NCBI GenBank assembly: GCA_963704435.1
Contig: OY969902.1
Coordinates: 360,001 to 392,000 of the forward strand
Reading direction: 5' to 3'
Source of the DNA: an uncultured archaeon
GTDB lineage: Archaea > Micrarchaeota > Micrarchaeia > Micrarchaeales > CABMGC01
DNA length: 32,000 nucleotides
Shown: positions 9,745 through 19,390 of the stretch, in pieces
Position numbering within the stretch: position 1 is the first letter of the stretch
How the letters are laid out: every line of letters starts with the position of its first letter
Notes under the pieces: generated by a model
The model's input: only the letters and a program-made list of their open reading frames with translations
Told to the model about the DNA's origin: nothing
Database searches by the model: none
Translations under genes and position numbers: made by a program

Positions 9745-12207
9745 ATGAAGCTGCAGTCCGCCATGGAGTATCTGCTTACCTATGGCTGGATGATCCTGAT
9801 AGTCACGATAGTCATCGCCGTGTTCATGCTGCTCGGAGTGTTCAATCCGAGCGGAATCGCAGGCCAGCAGTGCCTGCTGCCTGCAGGGCTATCCTGCTCG
9901 ATCTCGGACCTTACCCCTAATGGCGTGCTCCTCGTAAACATACTCCAGACCACGCCTACGCAGATAAACGTAAGCGCGGTAGGATGCGACACCCAGTCCC
10001 TGATACCCAGCGGAATGTCGACTTACAGGACCCTTCTCAGCAGCACGAGCTCCCCGTTCATCGTGCAGTGCTACGCGGGCAACAGCATCACCCCCGACAA
10101 TGCGCTGAGCATAGGCACCCTATTCTCCGGATACCTGATAGTGAACTACACAGAAGTCTACACAGGATTCCCCCACACAGCAACAGGAACACTCCTCGCC
10201 AGAGTCACATCGGTGAACCTCGCGACCACGATATCTTCGACAACGACTGCCACCACGACCAGTTCCACCATCTCCACAACCACAACAGGCACCTCCACTT
10301 CAACGACGTCCACGTCGACGACGGCCACGACCACATCATCCACTTCGACGACGTCAACGACCGCGAGCACCACCACAGTGGGCTGCACGCTCGCGGGCGT
10401 GACGGGCACGATACAGGTCGGAGGAAACCCGTATGGCGTCGCGTTCTCGCCGGACGGGACCTTTGCGTATACGACCAACTATGGCCCCGACACCCTCTCG
10501 ATGATAAGCACCGCGACCAACTCTGTCGTAAACACGATCGGGGCGGGACCTGGAGTGATCAACCCTGACGGCATCGCGTTCGTGCCGGGAAGCAGCACAT
10601 GGGCATACTTCGCGGACTCCTCCGGCCTCGGAACGATCTTCGTGCCTACGAACTGGGTTAATAATCCGATTAACTATTCAATACAGAGCTATGACGTGCA
10701 ATTCACGCCGAGCGGCAGCGAGGCGTACGTGGTGAGCGGCGTGGGGGGGGTTGAGAAATACAACGTCACGGTCATAAACACAGCGACAAGCGCAGTGGTC
10801 AACACGATCGTCCTTCCGAACCAAGGGACAAGCGAGCCACTCGGTGTTGGATTCTCTCCAAATGGAAATCTAGCTTACGTTACAGATTACAACAGCAACA
10901 AGGTTGATGTGATAAACGTCGCGACGAATACGGTCATAAACACGATTTCCGTAGACCCGGGGCCGAATGGAGTCGGCTTCGCTGACAACAACCACGCGTA
11001 CGTCACCACAGATTACAACGTTAAGCTTGACGTGATAAACGTCGCGACGAACACCGTCACAGCGAACAACATCGTCGCATCATATGCATCTTATGCCATC
11101 TCGGTCTCACCGGTTGGCAACCTTGCCTTGGTTTCTACTGCTGGGAATATCCTTGTGATAAACACTGTGAGCAACACCGTGATAAACTCAATCACGACAG
11201 GGGTGGGCTACACCGACAGGATAGCCATAGCGGCTAATGGCAAATACGCGTACATAGGTGACGCTCAGGAGCACATCGGATATATCAATATTCCAGCGAA
11301 CACGATGACCGCATTCGGTGCGGGCGGGGAAATAGAGGGAATGGCAACAGACCCGACCAGTTCAACTTACGCGTACGGGTCAATTTATTGCTGTGGAAGC
11401 TACGGGTTCATAAGAATCGCCACATCCAATAACGCCATCACCTATGCGACGACCATCCCGAACAAAAACTACTACTGGGAAATGGCAATCCCCTCAACCG
11501 GTGGAGTTGCGTATGAGACGGGCTACAGCTCCGCACACCTGAATATCATTAATCTCGCATCAATGTCTGCAGTGCCTAGTTCGGTCGGAATGACTCCGAA
11601 CGCGATTGCGGTCACGCCCGGCGGCATCGCGTATGTGGTGAACGGAGGCAGTGGCACGGTCACTGTGGTCGGCCCCCCTAGTGCAGGCTATCCTGTACTA
11701 GCGACCGTGCCCGTCGGCACCGACCCATGGGGCGCGGCGGTCTCGCCCAACGGCCAATATGTCTGGGTCACCAACTACGGATCTGGCACGGTCAGCGTCA
11801 TCAACACCGCGACCTACTCGGTCGTGGCCACCATCATAGTCGGCTCCAATCCTACGGGCCTCGCGCTGTCGCCCAACAGCGCCTACCTCTACGTCGCGAA
11901 CTCCGGAAGCAACAGCGTGAGCGTCATCACGACTTCGAACAATCAAGTGGTTGCTACCATACTTGTCGGGTCCAGCCCGTACGGCATCGCCGTTGCACCG
12001 ACAGGCGATTATATATACGTCGCAAACCACGGGAGCGGCACGGTCCTAGTGATCAACGCGGCCACGCTCAGCCTCGTCAACACGGTGGTCACTCCTGGAG
12101 GGACGCCGCATGCCATAGCCGCATCGCCGACGGGCAGCTATCTGTACGTGACTGACGACTCGCCGAGTAGTAAAGTCTTTGTGGTCGGTGAGGGGACCTG
12201 CACCTAA
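9745..12207 (+). CDS. Type IV pilin-like protein fused to YVTN-type beta-propeller repeats, 820 aa (paralog of 6624..9668)
   Basis: N-terminus MKL/QSAMEYLLTYGWMILIVTIVIAVFML is the classic archaeal pilin QSAxEYLxTYGW motif. It has a shorter globular domain, a longer Thr/Ser linker (about 10222-10380), then the same propeller. TATA-like TTTTAATC at 9711-9718. Confidence 0.85.
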   Translation: MKLQSAMEYLLTYGWMILIVTIVIAVFMLLGVFNPSGIAGQQCLLPAGLSCSISDLTPNGVLLVNILQTTPTQINVSAVGCDTQSLIPSGMSTYRTLLSSTSSPFIVQCYAGNSITPDNALSIGTLFSGYLIVNYTEVYTGFPHTATGTLLARVTSVNLATTISSTTTATTTSSTISTTTTGTSTSTTSTSTTATTTSSTSTTSTTASTTTVGCTLAGVTGTIQVGGNPYGVAFSPDGTFAYTTNYGPDTLSMISTATNSVVNTIGAGPGVINPDGIAFVPGSSTWAYFADSSGLGTIFVPTNWVNNPINYSIQSYDVQFTPSGSEAYVVSGVGGVEKYNVTVINTATSAVVNTIVLPNQGTSEPLGVGFSPNGNLAYVTDYNSNKVDVINVATNTVINTISVDPGPNGVGFADNNHAYVTTDYNVKLDVINVATNTVTANNIVASYASYAISVSPVGNLALVSTAGNILVINTVSNTVINSITTGVGYTDRIAIAANGKYAYIGDAQEHIGYINIPANTMTAFGAGGEIEGMATDPTSSTYAYGSIYCCGSYGFIRIATSNNAITYATTIPNKNYYWEMAIPSTGGVAYETGYSSAHLNIINLASMSAVPSSVGMTPNAIAVTPGGIAYVVNGGSGTVTVVGPPSAGYPVLATVPVGTDPWGAAVSPNGQYVWVTNYGSGTVSVINTATYSVVATIIVGSNPTGLALSPNSAYLYVANSGSNSVSVITTSNNQVVATILVGSSPYGIAVAPTGDYIYVANHGSGTVLVINAATLSLVNTVVTPGGTPHAIAASPTGSYLYVTDDSPSSKVFVVGEGTCT
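10381..10659. repeat. Near-identical block shared by the two propeller genes (copy 2)
   Basis: Counterpart of 7857-8135. Confidence 0.8.
11659..12205. repeat. 547-bp perfect direct repeat, copy 2 (3' end of the second propeller gene)
   Basis: Counterpart of 9120-9666. Confidence 0.95.
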
Positions 12208-12321: not shown

Positions 12322-13374
12322 TTATCTCCCAGGATTCTTCCTCACGAACCGCTTGTCCACGGCGGCTATGTCCTTGAAGCTGTGCAGCTGGATTCCCGCG
12401 TCGTCCTCGGAGTTGAACACCCTTATCCCCACGCGCTGGGCGTATGCCGCGTCAAGGACCTCCTTGACGCCCTCCTCGTTCAGCACCGAGTCGTTCACCA
12501 GCACCGCACCCGCCTGGTAGGTCTCCAGCGCCTCCCTTACCTTGTCCATGCCATAGAACGAGCGGCCCATAGCCAGCCCAGCGAGGAAAGCGTTGAGCGC
12601 ATCGAACTCGCCCTTCACCTTCTCGTTCTCGAGCAGCCTCGACACCGCATCGCTCTGCACCGCCTCGCGCACGCCCGACCTTTCCGCGTCGCTCGCTGCC
12701 GCGTACACCACCCTCTTCTCAAGCTTCAGGCCCTTCGTCTCGACGTGCTTCTTGAAATCGTCCTTAGTGAAGCCCGGCCCGGCTATGACTATCAGGTCGA
12801 CCTTCATCCCCGCGACTTTCTTCGCGATCTCGTCGAAGTACGCCTGCCTCGCCTTCCCGTACTCCGCCTCCTTCATCTTCTTGCTCAGCCCGCTGTAGAT
12901 CTCGGCCGCGGTCTCGATGCCCGTCCCCTTCACGTACGCGAACGTCGCCTTCTCGTCGTCCAATGCCACCGCTCCCAGCCTCGGCTTCCTTGAGTCGAGG
13001 ACCGCCTGCCTTATCATTCCGAGCGTGTACTCCTTCCACTCCGCCTTCCTCACGGTCAGGGCGTCTCCTTCTCCCACGCTCAGCGTGTGGTAGCTGCCCA
13101 TCCTCACGAACTCCTCCGGCCTGCCGCTAAGTATCTTCCCGGCCAGCCTGAGCATTCCCGAGTTCCTGTCTATCTCCACCTTCTCCACGCTCAGCTCGAT
13201 GACCACCTCCTTCTGCTCTCCCACGTCGCCCTCGCTGGGCCTGAAGCGCCTGGTGCTGCTGGCGGTCGCGGCGTCGCCCTTCCCTATCACCCTTGCGAGC
13301 AGGTACAGGTCGTCGAACGATGTCGGTACCAGCTTCAGCTCGTTAGTGGAATGGTTGAACCTTATTACCTTCAT
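12322..13374 (-). CDS. pelA: Pelota (Dom34 homolog, mRNA surveillance / ribosome rescue)
   Basis: MKVIRFNHSTNELKLVPTSFDDLYLLARVI.., 350 aa, eRF1-like three-domain layout. The start is taken at ATG-13374. The 189-codon upstream extension in the ORF track overlaps the DedA gene and looks non-coding (R/E/H/D-rich). Confidence 0.92.
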   Translation of the reverse strand: MKVIRFNHSTNELKLVPTSFDDLYLLARVIGKGDAATASSTRRFRPSEGDVGEQKEVVIELSVEKVEIDRNSGMLRLAGKILSGRPEEFVRMGSYHTLSVGEGDALTVRKAEWKEYTLGMIRQAVLDSRKPRLGAVALDDEKATFAYVKGTGIETAAEIYSGLSKKMKEAEYGKARQAYFDEIAKKVAGMKVDLIVIAGPGFTKDDFKKHVETKGLKLEKRVVYAAASDAERSGVREAVQSDAVSRLLENEKVKGEFDALNAFLAGLAMGRSFYGMDKVREALETYQAGAVLVNDSVLNEEGVKEVLDAAYAQRVGIRVFNSEDDAGIQLHSFKDIAAVDKRFVRKNPGR

Positions 13375-13431
13375 GCTCTCAATGGTCTTCTGGCTAATCA
13401 AAGATAAAAACATATGCAGGGAAATAAACCC

Positions 13432-14058
13432 ATGCACCTCTTCATGCTGCAGAGCCTGCTCAGCTTCACGTACGCGTCCGTAAGCGCCTTTATCGGCACC
13501 TACGGCTACATCGCGATCTTCGCGCTCACGGCGGCCGAGGCGGCGCTCCCGATCCCGAGCGAAGTCATCCTTCCCCTTGTAGGCTACTTCGGGGCCATTG
13601 GCGAGATAAGCGTGTTCGTGGGTTTCGCAGTCGCGATCCTCGGGAGCCTGGTCGGAATGGTCGCCGACTACTACGTGGCCTACTTCCTCGAGAAGGACGT
13701 AGTGTACAAGCACCTCCGCCTCTTCCACATGAAGCGCAGCAGTGTGGAGGCGTTCGACGCGTGGTTCGCAAAGAACGGCAAGCTCACCGTATTCGTATCC
13801 AGGCTCATCCCGCTGGTCAGGGCGCTGATAAACTTCCCTGCCGGCTTCGCGAAGATGAGGGTCAGGGAATTCCTGCTCTACTCGTTGGCGGGCACCATCA
13901 TATGGTCCGCGCTGCTTATGGGCTTCGGCTACTATGCGCACGGTCTGCTCGTAGCGAACGTGTACTACCTCGTGATAGCGCTGGTGCTATTCTTCGTCGT
14001 CCTGTATGCGCTGTACCGGTACATGATGGGAAAGATAAGGAAGCAGATAAAGAGCTGA
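13432..14058 (+). CDS. DedA/VTT-domain family membrane protein
   Basis: YGYIAIFALTAAEAALPIPSEVILPLVGYF and ..FVSRLIPLVRALINFPAGFAKM.. are typical DedA segments, with multiple TM helices. Start is ATG-13432 or ATG-13414. An AT-rich element at 13400-13411 could act as a bidirectional TATA box with Pelota. Confidence 0.85.
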   Translation: MHLFMLQSLLSFTYASVSAFIGTYGYIAIFALTAAEAALPIPSEVILPLVGYFGAIGEISVFVGFAVAILGSLVGMVADYYVAYFLEKDVVYKHLRLFHMKRSSVEAFDAWFAKNGKLTVFVSRLIPLVRALINFPAGFAKMRVREFLLYSLAGTIIWSALLMGFGYYAHGLLVANVYYLVIALVLFFVVLYALYRYMMGKIRKQIKS

Positions 14059-14234
14059 GAGAAAGCTTCATTTCCGCCCTTGAAAACAAGTTCAATATTT
14101 TGAACAGGGCCATATCTTTTTGAACGAGGGCTAGGGAGGCCATAGTCTAGGACATGCGGCGTAAGATAAGTGCAGTCGAAAAACTTATATATTAGAATTA
14201 CTATAACATTATAGTAAATAATATAGTGATATAA

Positions 14235-15254
14235 GTGAATAAGGAAGAGACAAAGATATTGAGCTATCTCTCAGACAACTTAGGTGATGGGGGAAACATA
14301 CGGGAAATGTCAGAGGGCATAAATAAAAGATATGGCCCTGCTTATTATTCTAACATCTACAACACCACGAATAAGCTTAAAAAAATGGGCATCGTAGACA
14401 TAGCGCAGGAAGGAAAGAACAGGCGGATAACGCTCGACGCGGAAAATCCCTTCTCAACGTATTACATGTCTGAGATCGAGAGCCACAAGGCTAGCCAAAC
14501 AACCCTCTCTAAGGAAATGCTGAGCAGCATATTGGATCTTGCTGAAAGATTCAATATATTTTCCATTTGCACTTTGGAAACTGAAAAACATCTGAAAATA
14601 AACAGGATAGAGATGCTAATCCTTGCCCAGAATCACGACGATGATGGAAAACTGATAAAATCTCTTTTACGAACGGAATCCGAGCAGGGAATAAAAATAG
14701 ACCCCTGCATATTTGCCATTGACGAATTCATAAAAATGATGCAGACCGATGAACTAAACCCGATAAAGGACATTATCCCTGACAAATGCGTATTATACAA
14801 CAGCGAAGGTTTCTGGAGCCTGATAAACCATCACAAGATAGGAATCAAATACAAAAAATCCAGAAAATTCTCCCTATATCTGACAGCGAGCGAACTAGCG
14901 TATAATTACAACAGGCAAGGCTATCAATTGAATGAGCAAATCAGGCCTTCCGAGAAGATATCCTTAGAAACCACAATATTCTCAATGAGCATCAAAAACG
15001 AAACCAGAATAAAATACGGAGCCATAATCCTGCTGTACAAAAACATTGAAAGAATAAATTGGGCTTGTTTATTCTATATGTACAAAAGATATGATGAGCT
15101 AAACAGATTCAAAAGCATCCTGCTTTCATTGGCAGACTTAAAGAATACGACAAACAACGCGGATATCAACCGCTACATCGAAATCATTACAGACAAACCA
15201 GATACGAAATACGACGCTAAAATAATTAAAAAATACATGGAGGTGTATGGTTAA
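14235..15254 (+). CDS. wHTH-domain protein of an AT-rich accessory gene pair (possible AbiEi-like regulator/antitoxin)
   Basis: 339 aa. The N-terminus TKILSYLSDNLGDGGNIREMSEGINKRYGPAYYSNIYNTTNKLKKMGIVDIAQEGKNRRITL is winged-helix-like. GTG start. Its stop TAA directly abuts the next ATG (TAAATG). Confidence 0.45.
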   Translation: MNKEETKILSYLSDNLGDGGNIREMSEGINKRYGPAYYSNIYNTTNKLKKMGIVDIAQEGKNRRITLDAENPFSTYYMSEIESHKASQTTLSKEMLSSILDLAERFNIFSICTLETEKHLKINRIEMLILAQNHDDDGKLIKSLLRTESEQGIKIDPCIFAIDEFIKMMQTDELNPIKDIIPDKCVLYNSEGFWSLINHHKIGIKYKKSRKFSLYLTASELAYNYNRQGYQLNEQIRPSEKISLETTIFSMSIKNETRIKYGAIILLYKNIERINWACLFYMYKRYDELNRFKSILLSLADLKNTTNNADINRYIEIITDKPDTKYDAKIIKKYMEVYG

Positions 15255-15770
15255 ATGGCAGGAATTTCAAAAAGAGACCTCCTACAGTTTCTTGAGTCCT
15301 TTGATCAGGAACTGACCAGAAAAATCCTGCTTGTTGCAGTTGGAGGAACCGCGATGACCTTGCTAGGCATCAAGGCGACAACGAAAGACATAGATTTCAA
15401 CATACCCTTGGAGGAGGATTTCAATGAATTCGCGCACATCAGAGACAAAATAAGGCCGGGCGTAAAAATTGACTGTTGGAGTTCTAATACCATATTCAGC
15501 GAGATTTTGCCGGGGGATTACATAAAAATTGCGATTGATTATCCTTCTGGCCTTCGAAAAATCGAAATTAAACTGTTGAACCCTATAGATATCGCATGTT
15601 CAAAAATCAGCAGGTTTAACGAGGCGGATCGGGAAGATATAGTGGACTGCATTGAAAAAATCGGCATAACAAGAGTACAGATGAGAAAGAGGGCGCAGAG
15701 ATATTCGCAGGTCGGAAGTGAACGGGCATTCAATGAAAATCTCGAATATATATTAGAGAACCTGTTCTAG
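15255..15770 (+). CDS. Minimal nucleotidyltransferase-fold protein (DUF6036/AbiEii/MNT-like)
   Basis: Pol-beta superfamily signature GG-x13-DxD (VAVGGTAMTLLGIKATTKDIDF). The later ..DIACSKISRFNEADREDIVDCI resembles the family's C-terminal helix. 171 aa, translationally coupled to the upstream gene. Confidence 0.6.
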   Translation: MAGISKRDLLQFLESFDQELTRKILLVAVGGTAMTLLGIKATTKDIDFNIPLEEDFNEFAHIRDKIRPGVKIDCWSSNTIFSEILPGDYIKIAIDYPSGLRKIEIKLLNPIDIACSKISRFNEADREDIVDCIEKIGITRVQMRKRAQRYSQVGSERAFNENLEYILENLF

Positions 15771-15858
15771 TTAATCCTATTCTGCAAGGGATAAAAATAG
15801 CGCCGAAGCCCGAGAGGCCTAGGGCATAAGCCAGCGGAAAAGTAAGCTTGGACTTAAA

Positions 15859-16209
15859 CTAGGGGGCCCGTGGTTTCGCCCGTGTGGACTTGGAAGGGGT
15901 CGGACTTAGGGGAGCCCTGCTGTCGAGTATGTAGTTCTTCACGACCTTGACCACCTGGTCTATGGCCCGCTTGATGTCCGCCTCGGTCTTTGCGCCCGTG
16001 CAGATTATCTTTCCGTTCTTGAACAGAAGCAGCGCTACCTTCGGCTCCTTTATCTTGTATATCGCTCCAGGGAACTGCTCCGGCTCGTAGTCGACGTCAG
16101 GCGAGGCCTTCGCTATCTCGTACAGGTCGAGCTCCACGCCCAGGTCTGCGCTGGCTACTATGTTCTCTATTTTGAACTGCGGATGAAGCGTGACCTTTTT
16201 CTTTGCCAT
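15859..16209 (-). CDS. Single-repeat TBP-domain protein (half-size TATA-binding-protein homolog)
   Basis: KIENIVASADLGVELDLYEIAKASPDVDYEPEQFPGAIYKIKEPKVALLLFKNGKIICTGAKTEADIKRAIDQVVKVV matches one TBP repeat almost motif for motif. The ORF is only 116 aa and ends in a Pro/basic tail. No second repeat is found in any frame nearby. Confidence 0.8.
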   Translation of the reverse strand: MAKKKVTLHPQFKIENIVASADLGVELDLYEIAKASPDVDYEPEQFPGAIYKIKEPKVALLLFKNGKIICTGAKTEADIKRAIDQVVKVVKNYILDSRAPLSPTPSKSTRAKPRAP

Positions 16210-16293
16210 TCATATCCCTCGGGTGCTTTTAAATGGTGTGAAAGGTATTTATATATTCTTCGCAGTAGTAGTACTGCACTTTTGGTGTTTAGC

Positions 16294-16584
16294 ATGAGCG
16301 AGAGGTCGCACGGCCTGTTCTCCGGAAGGACAAGGCATCTGGCACGTCATCACAAGCCCGGCAGGCTGGGCATCAGCAAGCTGGCGAAGAACTTCAAGAT
16401 CGGAGACAGGGTCGTCGTTCTCCCGAAGGGCAACTTCAGGGACATACCCCACCCGAGGTACAGGGGAAGGGTCGGCGTCGTCACTGAGAAGAGGGGGGGT
16501 GCCTATGCCGTGGAACTTCGGCTCTCGAGGAAGACCACGAAGACGCTCATAGTGAACCAGAGGCACCTGGACAAGGCCCCGTAG
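16294..16584 (+). CDS. rpl21e: 50S ribosomal protein L21e
   Basis: MSERSHGLFSGRTRHL..FKIGDRVVVLPKGNF..PHPRYRGRVGVV.., 96 aa. The start is ATG-16294; the ORF-track extension from 16183 overlaps the divergent promoter. A T-run follows the stop. Confidence 0.92.
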   Translation: MSERSHGLFSGRTRHLARHHKPGRLGISKLAKNFKIGDRVVVLPKGNFRDIPHPRYRGRVGVVTEKRGGAYAVELRLSRKTTKTLIVNQRHLDKAP

Positions 16585-16710
16585 GATTCCGACTTCTTTT
16601 AATTTCCTAGAATGAGAAAAGTCACTTTCAAGGCTGACCTGTCCAAGACTATCTCAAGCACTTTTATGCCTTCTACGTAAGCAAAAACAACACCGACCAA
16701 AACAAGGCCA

Positions 16711-16744
16711 ATATTTATATAGATAGGTATACCTATGGTATACC
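16711..16744 (+). promoter_or_regulatory. TATA-like box plus tandem palindromic operator candidate upstream of the Doc gene
   Basis: ATATTTATAT at 16711-16720. The self-complementary 8-mer GGTATACC occurs at 16726-16733 and 16737-16744 (11-bp register), ending 1 nt before GTG-16746. Confidence 0.4.
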
Positions 16745-16745
16745 A

Positions 16746-17117
16746 GTGAACAACGTGAAACGATTAACGAAGGAAGAGATAGTTGAGATTAACAAGAGCA
16801 TAGGAGAGGGAGGGGTGGAGAAAAATAGCAATCTTCCTGGCATAATCTACGCGTTGGATGAGACTGCTAACGTGGAGGATTATGCGACGCTGCTCTTGAC
16901 TGAGCTAATAAATCTTCATCCTTTCTTGCAGGGCAACAAGAGGACCGCGTTTTATTCGCTTGTGATGTTCCTCCGGAAGAACGGATACGCGCTAAAGAAG
17001 GAGCATAAATATAACGACAAAATAGACAGGATACTGATAAGTGTGATACGAGGAAAATCAAAGAACCATACGAGGCAGTTGCTAAAAAAGATGATATATT
17101 ATGGAAAACCTAAATGA
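16746..17117 (+). CDS. Doc-family (Fic-fold) toxin
   Basis: Doc-type motif HPFLQGNKRTAF (HxFxxGNKR). 123 aa. AT-rich context. Confidence 0.8.
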   Translation: MNNVKRLTKEEIVEINKSIGEGGVEKNSNLPGIIYALDETANVEDYATLLLTELINLHPFLQGNKRTAFYSLVMFLRKNGYALKKEHKYNDKIDRILISVIRGKSKNHTRQLLKKMIYYGKPK

Positions 17118-17373
17118 GTTCAGACTAGAGCTTGATGAGGAGAGGAAAAGATGGGCCGACGTTGAATTGAGCCTCAAAAATGAGGAGCTTGGAGTCAGGC
17201 TTAGGGCGCAGAAAGTGACCACCATAAAGGTCCATGAAGTCACGAGGGAGATGATAGAAACTCGCAAGCTTTATCCCACTGAGACCTGTGAGGCGGTCAT
17301 CTGTCGCTTATTGAGCGGTTCCTCTTCCGCTACTCATACTTTGGAGAAGCTTAAAACAAGAGTGGGTGTTTAA
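17101..17373 (+). CDS. Putative cognate antitoxin (VapB/DUF217-like C-terminal motif)
   Basis: Overlaps the Doc gene by 17 nt. TTIKVHEVTREMIETRKLYPTETCEAVICRLL resembles the archaeal 'I.vsdev...L......eSfsdvI..LL' putative-antitoxin pattern. The N-terminal part is charged and helical. Confidence 0.45.
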   Translation: MENLNEFRLELDEERKRWADVELSLKNEELGVRLRAQKVTTIKVHEVTREMIETRKLYPTETCEAVICRLLSGSSSATHTLEKLKTRVGV

Positions 17374-17407
17374 CCCTGACATGTCCACCCTCTCAGGGAA
17401 CCGTTGA

Positions 17408-18448: not shown

Positions 18449-19390
18449 TCATGCCTTCGCGAGGAATTCCTTGACCTGCTTGTAATACTGCTTCAGGGCA
18501 AACTCCACCGGGGCCTTGACGTGGTCCTTCTCGACCGAATCAATGAGCGCTTCGAAATACTTCTCCTTCTCCAGGGATATGTTCAAGAGAGGGAAACCCT
18601 CGTCAAGCAGGGTCTTATTGAATATTAGCCTGCAGATCCTCTTGTTTCCATCAAGAAAAGGATGGATCTTGTACAGTTTGTAGTGCGCAATTGTGGCTTT
18701 TTCTATAGGATTTAAGCGGCTACGGCCATACCAGTCGATAAACTCGTCAAGCAGTTTACCCACCTTATCAGAGCCGGGAGGGCGATAGTTCAACTCAACG
18801 CTCACCTGCCCCTCCCCCGCCATCCTATGCAAGTACACTTGCCTATCCCTGATCCGTCCGGGATTCTTGGTCTCGAAGCTGGCCATGGTTATCTTATGCA
18901 GCCCGAGCAGGTACCTCATATCAAGCTTACGGGGCTGCCTTATCAATTCCACGGCATTGAGCATGTTCCTGCTTATCTGCTCTTTTTGGTTGAGATAGGA
19001 ACCCTTTTCCAAAGCGTTCTTCACGTCCGCCAGGCTAACGTCCACATCTTCCGTCGTGAGGGTCGTCAACGTGAACAAAACGGTGCTGTCGATGTCGAAG
19101 TTGCGCCTCTTCAGGTTAGTCAATTTCCCGTATTTCCTGTTGAACAGGTCCCGAAACAGCAGGGACCTTATGACCTCGCCATTCTCAATCAATTCCGCGG
19201 CATACTTTTTGCCCGAGAGCCTTACGACAATCTCTTCCTTGAAGCCGTTTTCGATCTTGACTAATTCCTTTTCAGTAGGCTTTCTGACCCCTATGTATTT
19301 GCTGAAACTCCTTGACTTGTCAATCAAGAAATAGCTAAGAAAGGAGTAGTAGTAATCATTTCCTCTGATCTTCTTTACGACGAGCGTCAT
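18449..19390 (-). CDS. Fic-domain protein (probable AMPylase/NMP-transferase)
   Basis: Fic motif HPFLDGNKRICR, 313 aa. Composition is more AT-rich than the flanking core genes. Confidence 0.85.
   Translation of the reverse strand: MTLVVKKIRGNDYYYSFLSYFLIDKSRSFSKYIGVRKPTEKELVKIENGFKEEIVVRLSGKKYAAELIENGEVIRSLLFRDLFNRKYGKLTNLKRRNFDIDSTVLFTLTTLTTEDVDVSLADVKNALEKGSYLNQKEQISRNMLNAVELIRQPRKLDMRYLLGLHKITMASFETKNPGRIRDRQVYLHRMAGEGQVSVELNYRPPGSDKVGKLLDEFIDWYGRSRLNPIEKATIAHYKLYKIHPFLDGNKRICRLIFNKTLLDEGFPLLNISLEKEKYFEALIDSVEKDHVKAPVEFALKQYYKQVKEFLAKA

Follow-up and report, generated by a model that had tools for sequence, protein, structure and literature searches.

The half-size tbp of a member of the Micrarchaeota is a real gene and represents a new architectural variant of a well-known factor

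The tbp locus and its single-repeat product

The stretch of DNA analysed here (the window, 32,000 nucleotides) comprises positions 360,001-392,000 of contig OY969902.1 (assembly GCA_963704435.1), the one-contig, 852,977-bp genome of a member of the Micrarchaeota. This contig has a GC content of 55.5%, contains no N, and shows a marker completeness of 92% with a contamination of 0. In the window, the gene for Pelota is followed by DedA (VTT domain), an AT-rich insert, the gene for TBP (TATA-box-binding protein), and the divergently oriented gene for ribosomal protein L21e; beyond the latter lie an AT-rich Fic/Doc insert, DUF655, Rpo4/F, an AT-rich Fic gene, and MoxR. The window does not contain any tRNA genes. 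The insert between DedA and tbp encodes a 339-aa protein without assigned family and a 171-aa DUF6036 nucleotidyltransferase (Pfam), and its GC content is 0.38-0.41 compared to about 0.56 for the genome. Its last open reading frame (ORF) ends at position 15770 and is followed by about 88 nt of intermediate composition before the tbp stop codon (15859-15861) is reached, so that the distance of about 10 nt between stop codon and AT-rich block given in the first-pass annotation had been too short. Convincing flanking direct repeats were not found at the borders of the island. The features of the locus are compiled in Table 1.

Table 1. Positions of the features at the tbp locus within the window
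Feature	Position	Strand	Basis or remark
Single-repeat TBP gene, 116 aa plus TAG stop codon	15859..16209	-	ORF with ATG start; Pfam PF00352
TBP repeat (residues 11-93): S1, helix, stirrup DYEPEQFPG, remaining strands, long helix H2	15931..16179	-	HMM match
C-terminal Pro/Ser/basic tail, residues 96-116	15862..15924	-	Predicted to be disordered (pLDDT)
Conserved TATA-like box ATATATAAATACC	16244..16256	-	About 35-47 nt upstream of the TBP start codon
Second candidate A/T box, TTTAAAA on the minus strand	16227..16233	-	About 18-24 nt upstream of the start codon
Ribosomal protein L21e, divergent neighbour marking the conserved tbp position	16294..16584	+	Pfam Ribosomal_L21e, E 1.7e-14
Strain-specific, AT-rich insert separating DedA from the 3' end of tbp; outside the TBP gene	14060..15850	+	

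TBPs of archaea and eukaryotes consist of two tandem repeats (about 180 aa) that form a pseudo-symmetric saddle. According to the textbook view, TBP arose when a gene whose product acted as a homodimer was duplicated and fused in ancient times, and such an ancestral single-repeat homodimer has long been hypothesised. To our knowledge, all characterised TBPs, archaeal to human, consist of a single chain with two repeats, and the homodimer stage has never before been observed in the core machinery of any living organism.

The protein encoded by the tbp gene in the window (MAKKKVTLHPQFKIENIVASADLGVELDLYEIAKASPDVDYEPEQFPGAIYKIKEPKVALLLFKNGKIICTGAKTEADIKRAIDQVVKVVKNYILDSRAPLSPTPSKSTRAKPRAP), referred to as half-TBP in the following, contains only one of the two tandem repeats. 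It had been described as a 116-aa ORF with one complete TBP repeat, and the Pfam analysis agrees with this description: family PF00352 matches residues 11-93 (contig positions 375931-376179) with an E value of 1.9e-31 and 108 bits (cut-off 22.9), and this match covers positions 1-85 of the 85 positions of the profile. Among the motifs originally quoted, IENIVASADL and EPKVALLLFKNGKIICTGAK are present, while the stirrup reads DYEPEQFPG and not EYEPEQFPG. The Pro/Ser/basic tail reported before is found at the C-terminus (SRAPLSPTPSKSTRAKPRAP). This tail is confined to the cluster of the own strain, where the cluster representative P0005, which is 99% identical, has it as well. In relatives of the same genus, DNA homology with the half-TBP gene stops just after NYIL(DS), and the last approximately 20 codons are specific to the strain cluster. 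Each lineage's single-repeat TBP has its own tail beyond the repeat, and the tails of the relatives are short and mostly Lys-rich.

When 76 aligned sequences were supplied, AlphaFold2 modelled the half-TBP with a mean pLDDT of 80, compared to a pLDDT of only 46 without alignment. The pLDDT is above 90 over approximately residues 21-90 and below 50 for residues 98-112. The predicted structure superposes on one lobe of the TBPs 2z8u, 1cdw, 1pcz, 1mp9, and 1ais with an rmsd of 1.1-2.9 Å over 77-86 columns. In a Foldseek search against the PDB, the best 44 matches are all TBP chains, each matched over one lobe, with rmsd values of 1.1-5.3 Å that are mostly at or below 3.5 Å. The TM-scores of 0.62-0.69 by query and of about 0.4 after normalisation to the two-lobe targets are consistent with a match to one lobe. 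Based on the model, the half-TBP is predicted to adopt the TBP-lobe fold consisting of a five-stranded sheet and two helices.

Both repeats of solved TBPs are also matched by the half-TBP sequence, with an E value of about 1e-46. In the Foldseek alignments, the half-TBP is 47-48% identical to either repeat of the TBPs of M. jannaschii (2Z8U) and P. woesei (1PCZ, 1AIS, 1D3U), and 43-44% identical to the TBP of S. acidocaldarius (1MP9). Thus, it belongs to the same Pfam family as the canonical archaeal TBPs and shares the fold of one lobe with them in the model (rmsd 1.5-2.9 Å), but it has one repeat and 116 aa instead of 180-200 aa. Another difference concerns the tail, which is basic and rich in Pro and Ser in the half-TBP, whereas the TBP of P. 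woesei ends in an acidic tail.

Across 76 orthologues, 31 columns are invariant. These include F46, F63, and E42-P43-E44 as well as N16, V18, Q45, P47, G48, K64, N65, and G66. F46 (in EQFPG) and F63 (in LLLFKNGK) align with the corresponding Phe residues in both repeats of the P. woesei TBP. From the 1AIS and 1YTB complexes we take F46 and F63 to be the DNA-kinking Phe residues and the E-P-E stirrup to be the contact site for TFB/TFIIB; this Phe pair and the stirrup are kept in the half-TBP as in canonical TBP. In comparisons with 13 relatives from the same family, dN/dS is 0.02-0.08 at a dS of 0.6-1.5, and the half-TBP gene is under strong purifying selection.

The box ATATATAAATACC is located in the 84-bp spacer that is shared by tbp and the divergent L21e gene. 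In an alignment of ten orthologous upstream regions, one of which belongs to a two-repeat gene (locus L166), the sole conserved block is TATAAATACC with the invariant positions T50, A51, A52, A53, C56, and C57. This conservation makes ATATATAAATACC a putative promoter element of tbp. The second A/T box, which corresponds to TTTATAAAG in the relatives, is partly conserved in the same alignment.

The genome was further searched for other TBP sequences. When all six frames of the 852,977-bp contig were searched by HMM (E ≤ 10), no TBP repeat was revealed besides the one at 15931..16179, and no further locus in the contig was found by tblastn with three two-repeat TBPs from Micrarchaeota (E ≤ 100, word size 2). 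With a paralogous half-TBP (type B, see below) as query, the half-TBP gene alone was matched, and a search for the family DUF3378, which has a related fold, led to a weak match to the half-TBP gene and to none other. The early observation that a second repeat is not visible in any frame therefore holds genome-wide, and the full-length TBP that might have been encoded elsewhere was found neither by HMM nor by tblastn searches of the contig. As the ends of the contig do not overlap and the completeness is 92%, another TBP could in principle be encoded on a missing piece or on a separate replicon of this organism. Regarding other initiation factors, the genome encodes a single TFB, which contains a zinc ribbon and two cyclin repeats, and one match above the Pfam cut-off was obtained for TFE-alpha. 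With a single repeat in its polypeptide and none elsewhere in the genome, the half-TBP is a TBP-family protein of non-canonical architecture and not a canonical TBP.

Distribution of single-repeat and two-repeat forms in Micrarchaeia

Orthologous single-repeat genes, for which a search among relatives had been proposed in the first-pass annotation, were found at all 80 loci fetched from named Micrarchaeota genomes. These loci encode 75 distinct products of about 94-120 aa (nearest start codon used). Most of them have the gene order MoxR-RpoF-DUF655-L21e-TBP-DedA as far as the fetched stretch reaches, and DedA mostly starts about 60-200 nt past the TBP match. None of the 80 loci carries any of the five insert genes of the window's locus, and neither the 339-aa ORF nor the DUF6036 ORF has a match in any of them.

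These loci bear on the proposal that the half-TBP gene is a pseudogene or remnant, derived from a two-repeat gene that was cut at the inter-repeat linker by the AT-rich island or that is decaying. The presence of a strain-specific, AT-rich insert of 1.8 kb on the 3' side of tbp would fit such an origin, as would the restriction of the tail to the own strain's cluster and the end of homology after NYILDS, from which it follows that the insertion or a linked event may have replaced the last codons. However, in relatives that lack the island, the same place is occupied by a single-repeat gene of comparable length, with DedA close behind. This refutes the truncation by the island, which is also contradicted by the strong purifying selection on the gene. 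Further points against a remnant are that no trace of a second repeat is present anywhere in the genome, that the upstream TATA-like box is conserved, and that there is no other TBP to assume the function. Taken together, a pseudogene or remnant is barely conceivable. A two-repeat gene at the orthologous locus, which had been named as a sign of an interrupted gene, does occur in one relative (P0002, locus L166). Yet, the half-TBP is not a broken copy of such a gene because P0002/L166 is a full tandem of two near-copies of the half-TBP repeat and because the genomes from the same genus as the source are single-repeat.

The single-repeat loci include the closed chromosome NZ_CP060530 of the cultured Ca. 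Micrarchaeum sp. A_DKE. They are also found on contigs of MFD bins, which we take to be the long-read Microflora Danica assemblies of PMC12313526, among them contigs of 1.05 Mb and 0.66 Mb. In a survey of 251 Micrarchaeia assemblies, each at least 80% complete, a TBP match was obtained for 244, and exactly one TBP repeat is present in 87 of the 251 (table counted by hand). In the family of the source genome, 20 of the 32 sampled genomes, including the source, have exactly one repeat. One of these is the one-contig genome G123; other one-contig genomes with a single-repeat TBP are G039, G032, G208, and G217. A protein database search (E ≤ 1e-5) yielded 790 clusters of half-TBP homologues with 47-150 aa; in the 120 of these clusters that were listed, the lengths are 93-150 aa and the label is either 'TATA-box-binding protein' or 'hypothetical protein'. 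The single-repeat TBP is a lineage trait of Micrarchaeia that occurs across many families.

Two-repeat forms are found in the same group. The proteins P0001-P0004 have 195-196 aa, are 83-88% identical to the half-TBP, and consist of two tandem copies of the same repeat, with N and C halves that are 86-92% identical at the amino acid level. The gene for P0002 is located in the conserved neighbourhood MoxR-RpoF-DUF655-L21e-TBP-DedA at the orthologous locus, and its halves show identities of 92% (aa) and 87% (nt) with a dN/dS of 0.07. The respective organism has about sister-genus distance from the source. Thus, the half-TBP shares the neighbourhood and the upstream TATA-like box with two-repeat TBPs of Micrarchaeota such as P0002, which are tandem copies with 59-92% identical halves, whereas the half-TBP is a single copy. 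In G074 (family f7), the halves are 84% identical (aa), and this genome adjoins single-repeat members of f7. In G262 (family f16), the N and C repeats pair together in the tree. Halves that are 59-78% identical are encoded in the families f5, f10, f13, f14, f16 (one genome read), and f30. For comparison, N and C repeats are 28-54% identical in 76 other two-repeat TBPs and solved structures. In the simplest reading of these sequences, two-repeat genes would have been rebuilt by at least four separate tandem re-duplications; repeated collapse together with gene conversion is a possible alternative to repeated re-duplication.

The existence of two-repeat relatives with nearly identical halves makes it a real risk that two tandem repeats were collapsed into one by the assembler, in which case the single-repeat gene would be an artefact. 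P0001-P0004 illustrate this risk, and it is further indicated by several TBP loci at contig ends and by G021 from the source's family, in which the repeat ends are 99% DNA-identical over 99 nt and the contig breaks within the gene; the two-repeat gene of G021 is itself possibly a misassembly. On the other hand, the single-repeat form is present in the closed chromosome of cultured A_DKE, on MFD contigs of up to 1.05 Mb, and in one-contig genomes, and the repeats of P0002 were assembled without trouble despite their DNA identity of 87%. The lineage-specific tails and the synonymous divergence at very low dN/dS among single-repeat genes also argue against a collapse, which we consider highly improbable. 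The half-size tbp in the window is a real gene and not a truncation.

In the sister family f3 (genomes listed or read) and in about one third of the source's family, two separate half-genes are present at different loci. The type A half-TBP at the L21e locus is the orthologue of the source genome's gene, and type B (IQNIVVSADLHA...) is encoded elsewhere. In comparison with the half-TBP, type A proteins from split pairs of related Micrarchaeota, A_DKE included, are 68-72% identical and are encoded at the same locus. The type B half-TBPs form a clade of their own (SH-aLRT 95) with members from both families. Only type A occurs in the source genome and in its genus, and the presence of both families in the type B clade indicates that the genus lost type B.

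Origin of the single-repeat state

As one of three options, the first-pass annotation had considered an intragenic recombination between the repeats, because the first half appeared more similar to repeat 1 and the second half more similar to repeat 2 of the Pyrococcus TBP. Over its full length, the half-TBP repeat shares 36-39 of 83 residues with canonical repeats and is no closer to N than to C. Its first 30 residues have 13 and 10 matches to the N and C repeats of Pyrococcus, respectively, and 10 and 13 to those of M. jannaschii; for the last 53 residues, the respective numbers are 25 and 29 for Pyrococcus and 26 and 25 for M. jannaschii. An N-like first half with a C-like second half is therefore not consistent across the two organisms, the pattern seen with Pyrococcus being reversed with M. 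jannaschii, and EYEPEQFPG is present in the N repeat of the M. jannaschii TBP, too. These comparisons provide no specific support for a chimera. A deletion by recombination between similar repeats, somewhere in the lineage, is a possible origin.

In a first repeat tree, in which row L016 was ignored (bad extraction, branch length 10), the repeats from Micrarchaeia, whether single, N, or C, all fall into one group that is separated from canonical N and C repeats with an SH-aLRT of 92. The two-repeat forms of Micrarchaeia are nested among single-repeat forms. A larger tree over 83 columns combines 23 repeats from Micrarchaeia with 51 N and 51 C repeats of canonical TBPs; its backbone is unresolved, and the Micrarchaeia repeats again form one group (SH-aLRT 99). 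When this tree is rooted on the Micrarchaeia group, only N repeats are found as nearest neighbours of this group. One deeper clade of 73 rows comprises 50 of the 51 C repeats, mixed with 23 N repeats. Placing the C repeats alone on one side results in a best tree that exceeds the one with the N repeats alone by about 32 log-likelihood units, and neither of the two placements was rejected in AU tests (p 0.45 and 0.74). In these trees, the Micrarchaeia repeat seems to lean towards the N side.

The half-TBP might be a direct descendant of a homodimeric TBP that the first archaea possessed before the duplication. In that case, the two-repeat gene found in all other archaea and in eukaryotes would be of later origin, and Micrarchaeia would never have had it or would have re-invented it locally. 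Such a relic would be compatible with the separate grouping of the Micrarchaeia repeats in both trees, with the equal distance of the half-TBP repeat from canonical N and C repeats, and with the nesting of two-repeat forms among single-repeat forms. It is opposed by the position of the N repeats next to the Micrarchaeia group and of nearly all C repeats in a deeper clade, and by the better likelihood of the C-alone tree, although the AU tests reject neither placement. In addition, the N and C repeats of TBP are orthologous across Archaea and eukaryotes, and we know of no placement of Micrarchaeota outside all other Archaea. A relic would thus require that the two-repeat gene arose or spread independently elsewhere, and we regard it as very unlikely.

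A secondary reduction in the stem of the Micrarchaeia is the most likely origin of the single-repeat state and much likelier than a relic, given that orthologous N and C repeats are common to all other archaea and to eukaryotes. The repeat kept by this reduction is probably N-like with a C-like stirrup. The reduction in the stem would have been followed by a duplication into types A and B in some families, by the loss of type B in the genus of the source, and by at least four separate tandem re-duplications.

Proposed role in transcription initiation

With one repeat per polypeptide, the TBP saddle must be formed from two chains and would be perfectly symmetric. The half-TBP is a candidate general factor: its gene is the sole TBP-domain gene found, it is accompanied by one TFB and by TFE-alpha, and it is located at the conserved tbp locus, where it adjoins genes for transcription and translation like canonical archaeal tbp genes do. 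On these sequence-based grounds, we are fairly confident that the half-TBP functions as a homodimeric general TBP, and transcription in this organism is probably initiated by two identical half-proteins that form a symmetric pair. Among the options initially put forward, the homodimerising mini-TBP is therefore the one favoured by the evidence; the term paralog, which had been attached to it, is not appropriate for the only TBP-domain gene found.

In the proposed mechanism, two 116-aa chains would pair via their S1 strands and H2 helices, resulting in the ten-stranded saddle of a normal TBP, and this symmetric dimer would bind and bend an A/T-rich box. The disordered basic tail may contribute non-specific affinity for DNA. 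Both stirrups of the dimer would be identical and would carry the YEPEQF motif, similar to the TFB-binding stirrup of repeat 2, so that TFB could dock on either side. In canonical TBPs, the YEPEQF stirrup marks the TFB-binding side, and the orientation of archaeal initiation complexes is established to depend on the contact between TFB and BRE. With identical stirrups on both sides, the direction of transcription would be set by this TFB-BRE contact only. Archaeal TBPs are already near-symmetric, and together with the polarity provided by BRE and TFB this may have made the reduction tolerable in Archaea.

The two-repeat relatives bear on the geometry of such a dimer. The P0002 fusion is in line with an assembly of the subunits in the two-lobe arrangement of canonical TBP, and the fact that head-to-tail self-fusions are viable and under purifying selection supports the canonical lobe-lobe geometry. 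In the wider Micrarchaeia group, a heterodimer may be the preferred form of TBP because many relatives keep two half-genes and a homodimer is forced only when type B is absent. Relatives with split pairs, A_DKE among them, have such a second half-gene and could form a heterodimer, whereas the source genome has type A only. The retention of types A and B in related families, where pairing of unlike partners would be normal, is also a reason to ask whether the half-TBP is functional without being a self-sufficient homodimer, be it as a monomer on half-sites, with a partner that is not recognisable, or in a modified form of initiation. Room for such a partner exists, as about 30% of the genes in such genomes are without assigned function according to the paper on A_DKE (PMC8975820). 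Opposed to this are the searches with HMM, tblastn, and type B queries, in which no second TBP-like sequence was revealed, and the 87 sampled assemblies with one repeat only. Moreover, tandem self-fusions of the same repeat are viable and conserved, which argues that pairing of A with A works. A function other than that of a self-sufficient homodimer appears unlikely on this basis.

Stand-alone TBP-domain proteins have been reported before by Brindefalk et al. 2013 (PMC3597702), namely halobacterial TbpA and proteins of about 95 aa from Thermococcales. These monopartite proteins co-occur with full-length TBP, TbpA is not essential, and the proteins from Thermococcales are very divergent from TBP. 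The half-TBP resembles them in being a single TBP domain that makes up the whole protein. In contrast to these accessory proteins, it is encoded at the tbp locus in a genome without full-length TBP, and, unlike the divergent proteins from Thermococcales, it is 43-48% identical to canonical repeats. For Micrarchaeota or DPANN, a description of single-repeat TBPs was not found in the full-text literature, subscription journals being outside the scope of the search. A study on distances between TBP repeats (PMC4910066) leaves out Micrarchaeota. In the accessible part of the main text and supplements on strain A_DKE (PMC8975820), there is no entry for TBP or 'transcription initiation factor', and 'TATA' matches just the rows for TatA of the host.

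It appears that a whole archaeal group runs transcription with a half-protein, with no alternative TBP found in the source genome. Neighbouring lineages display other stages in the form of split half-genes, fresh tandem fusions, whose halves are 84-99% identical, and older ones with an identity of 59-78% between the halves. The path of TBP from homodimer to fusion becomes accessible to experiments, as Ca. Micrarchaeum sp. A_DKE is a member of the group with a closed genome that is available in co-culture. Questions that can now be addressed are directional initiation by a perfectly symmetric TBP, the contact between BRE and TFB alone as determinant of the direction of transcription, and the evolution of asymmetry after duplication.

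Promoter motifs were also sought in the genome of the source. An EM motif search in 545 upstream regions genome-wide led to the weak, low-information motif AA-N3-WTAWAWA, for which just 55 sites with scattered positions score above 6. A cruder promoter analysis revealed only TATA-like hexamers and a mild rise in A/T at positions -35 to -21. The signal AA-N3-WTAWAWA is suggestive of a BRE plus a TATA box but too weak to serve as evidence.

Two-repeat TBPs in relatives of the archaeon

The repeat tree suggests that the duplication behind the two-repeat TATA-binding protein (TBP) genes of families f5, f10, and f30 is older than the diversification of these families. In the gene at locus L106 (genome G042, family f5), the N- and C-terminal halves differ by a dS of 0.40 with a dN/dS of 0.53, and in this and similar two-repeat genes the synonymous divergence between the halves is below the value expected for a duplication of that age. 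The low dS is a hint of gene conversion between the N- and C-terminal halves of these genes. Another two-repeat gene, L014, is located at the end of a contig (G021:C39), and the ends of its repeats are identical at 98 of 99 nucleotides. The contig break falls within the first repeat. The gene arose by tandem duplication very recently, or else it reflects a loop made by the assembler.

Two-repeat TBPs of canonical appearance, with N- and C-terminal repeats that are 41-43% identical, are encoded at L113 (G240:C43) and L114 (G100:C77). The respective contigs are short (8.4 and 3.7 kb), and both Micrarchaeia bins, G240 and G100, contain half-TBP genes as well. Both loci are probably contamination of the bins by the host or other archaea. 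L113 and L114 each served as an outgroup in the first repeat tree, and L113 did so again in the second.

Variants of the half-TBP

The 127-aa half-TBP P0308 from the representative library combines a first half of type B (IKIQNIVVSADLHAVIDLYALSKEVKAVDYEPEQFPG) with a second half of type A (AICKIHEPKTALLLFKNGKIICTGAKTEADIRKAIDQVVKIVKDY). This arrangement reflects natural A/B recombination or else a chimeric contig. Genome G065 (family f8) harbors three separate single-repeat TBP genes (L127-L129) on a 1.18-Mb contig, two of which are near-identical copies at distant positions.

The TFB gene and the genes surrounding the half-TBP

Three strain-specific, AT-rich inserts (GC 0.38-0.50) interrupt a run of otherwise conserved informational genes in the window, and their contents are absent from the TBP loci of 80 relatives. 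In insert 2, the two genes overlap by 17 nt and resemble a toxin-antitoxin pair.

Features of the window and the TFB gene of the same genome
Feature	Position	Strand	Content
Insert 1	14060-15850		339-aa ORF without family; DUF6036 nucleotidyltransferase
Insert 2	16600-17400		123-aa Fic/Doc protein; 90-aa ORF
Insert 3	18449-19390		313-aa Fic protein; match to anti-phage SoFic model (E 2.8e-24)
ORF containing a Pelota/aRF1-family gene	12322-13941	-	Mechanical ORF of 539 aa, longer than the gene
820-aa protein	9745-12207	+	Hydrophobic N-terminal segment, Ser/Thr-rich linker, beta-propeller repeats
Sole TFB gene	L021 1474-2691 (G000:C1, about 145.1-146.3 kb)	-	

The Pelota-like portion of the 539-aa ORF, comprising eRF1 domains 1-3, corresponds to the C-terminal 350 aa (12322-13374); the region upstream of it overlaps with DedA, which is encoded on the opposite strand. 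The 820-aa protein is likely a cell-surface protein of the symbiont; its hydrophobic segment (MKLQSAMEYLLTYGWMILIVTIVIAVF...) looks like a pilin-type signal, its linker is long, and its propeller repeats are YncE/NHL-like.

If translation begins at the upstream start codon, TFB may have about 100 additional N-terminal residues, rich in Lys, Ala, and Arg, ahead of the zinc ribbon. Basic tails are a recurring feature of the relatives' half-TBPs as well.
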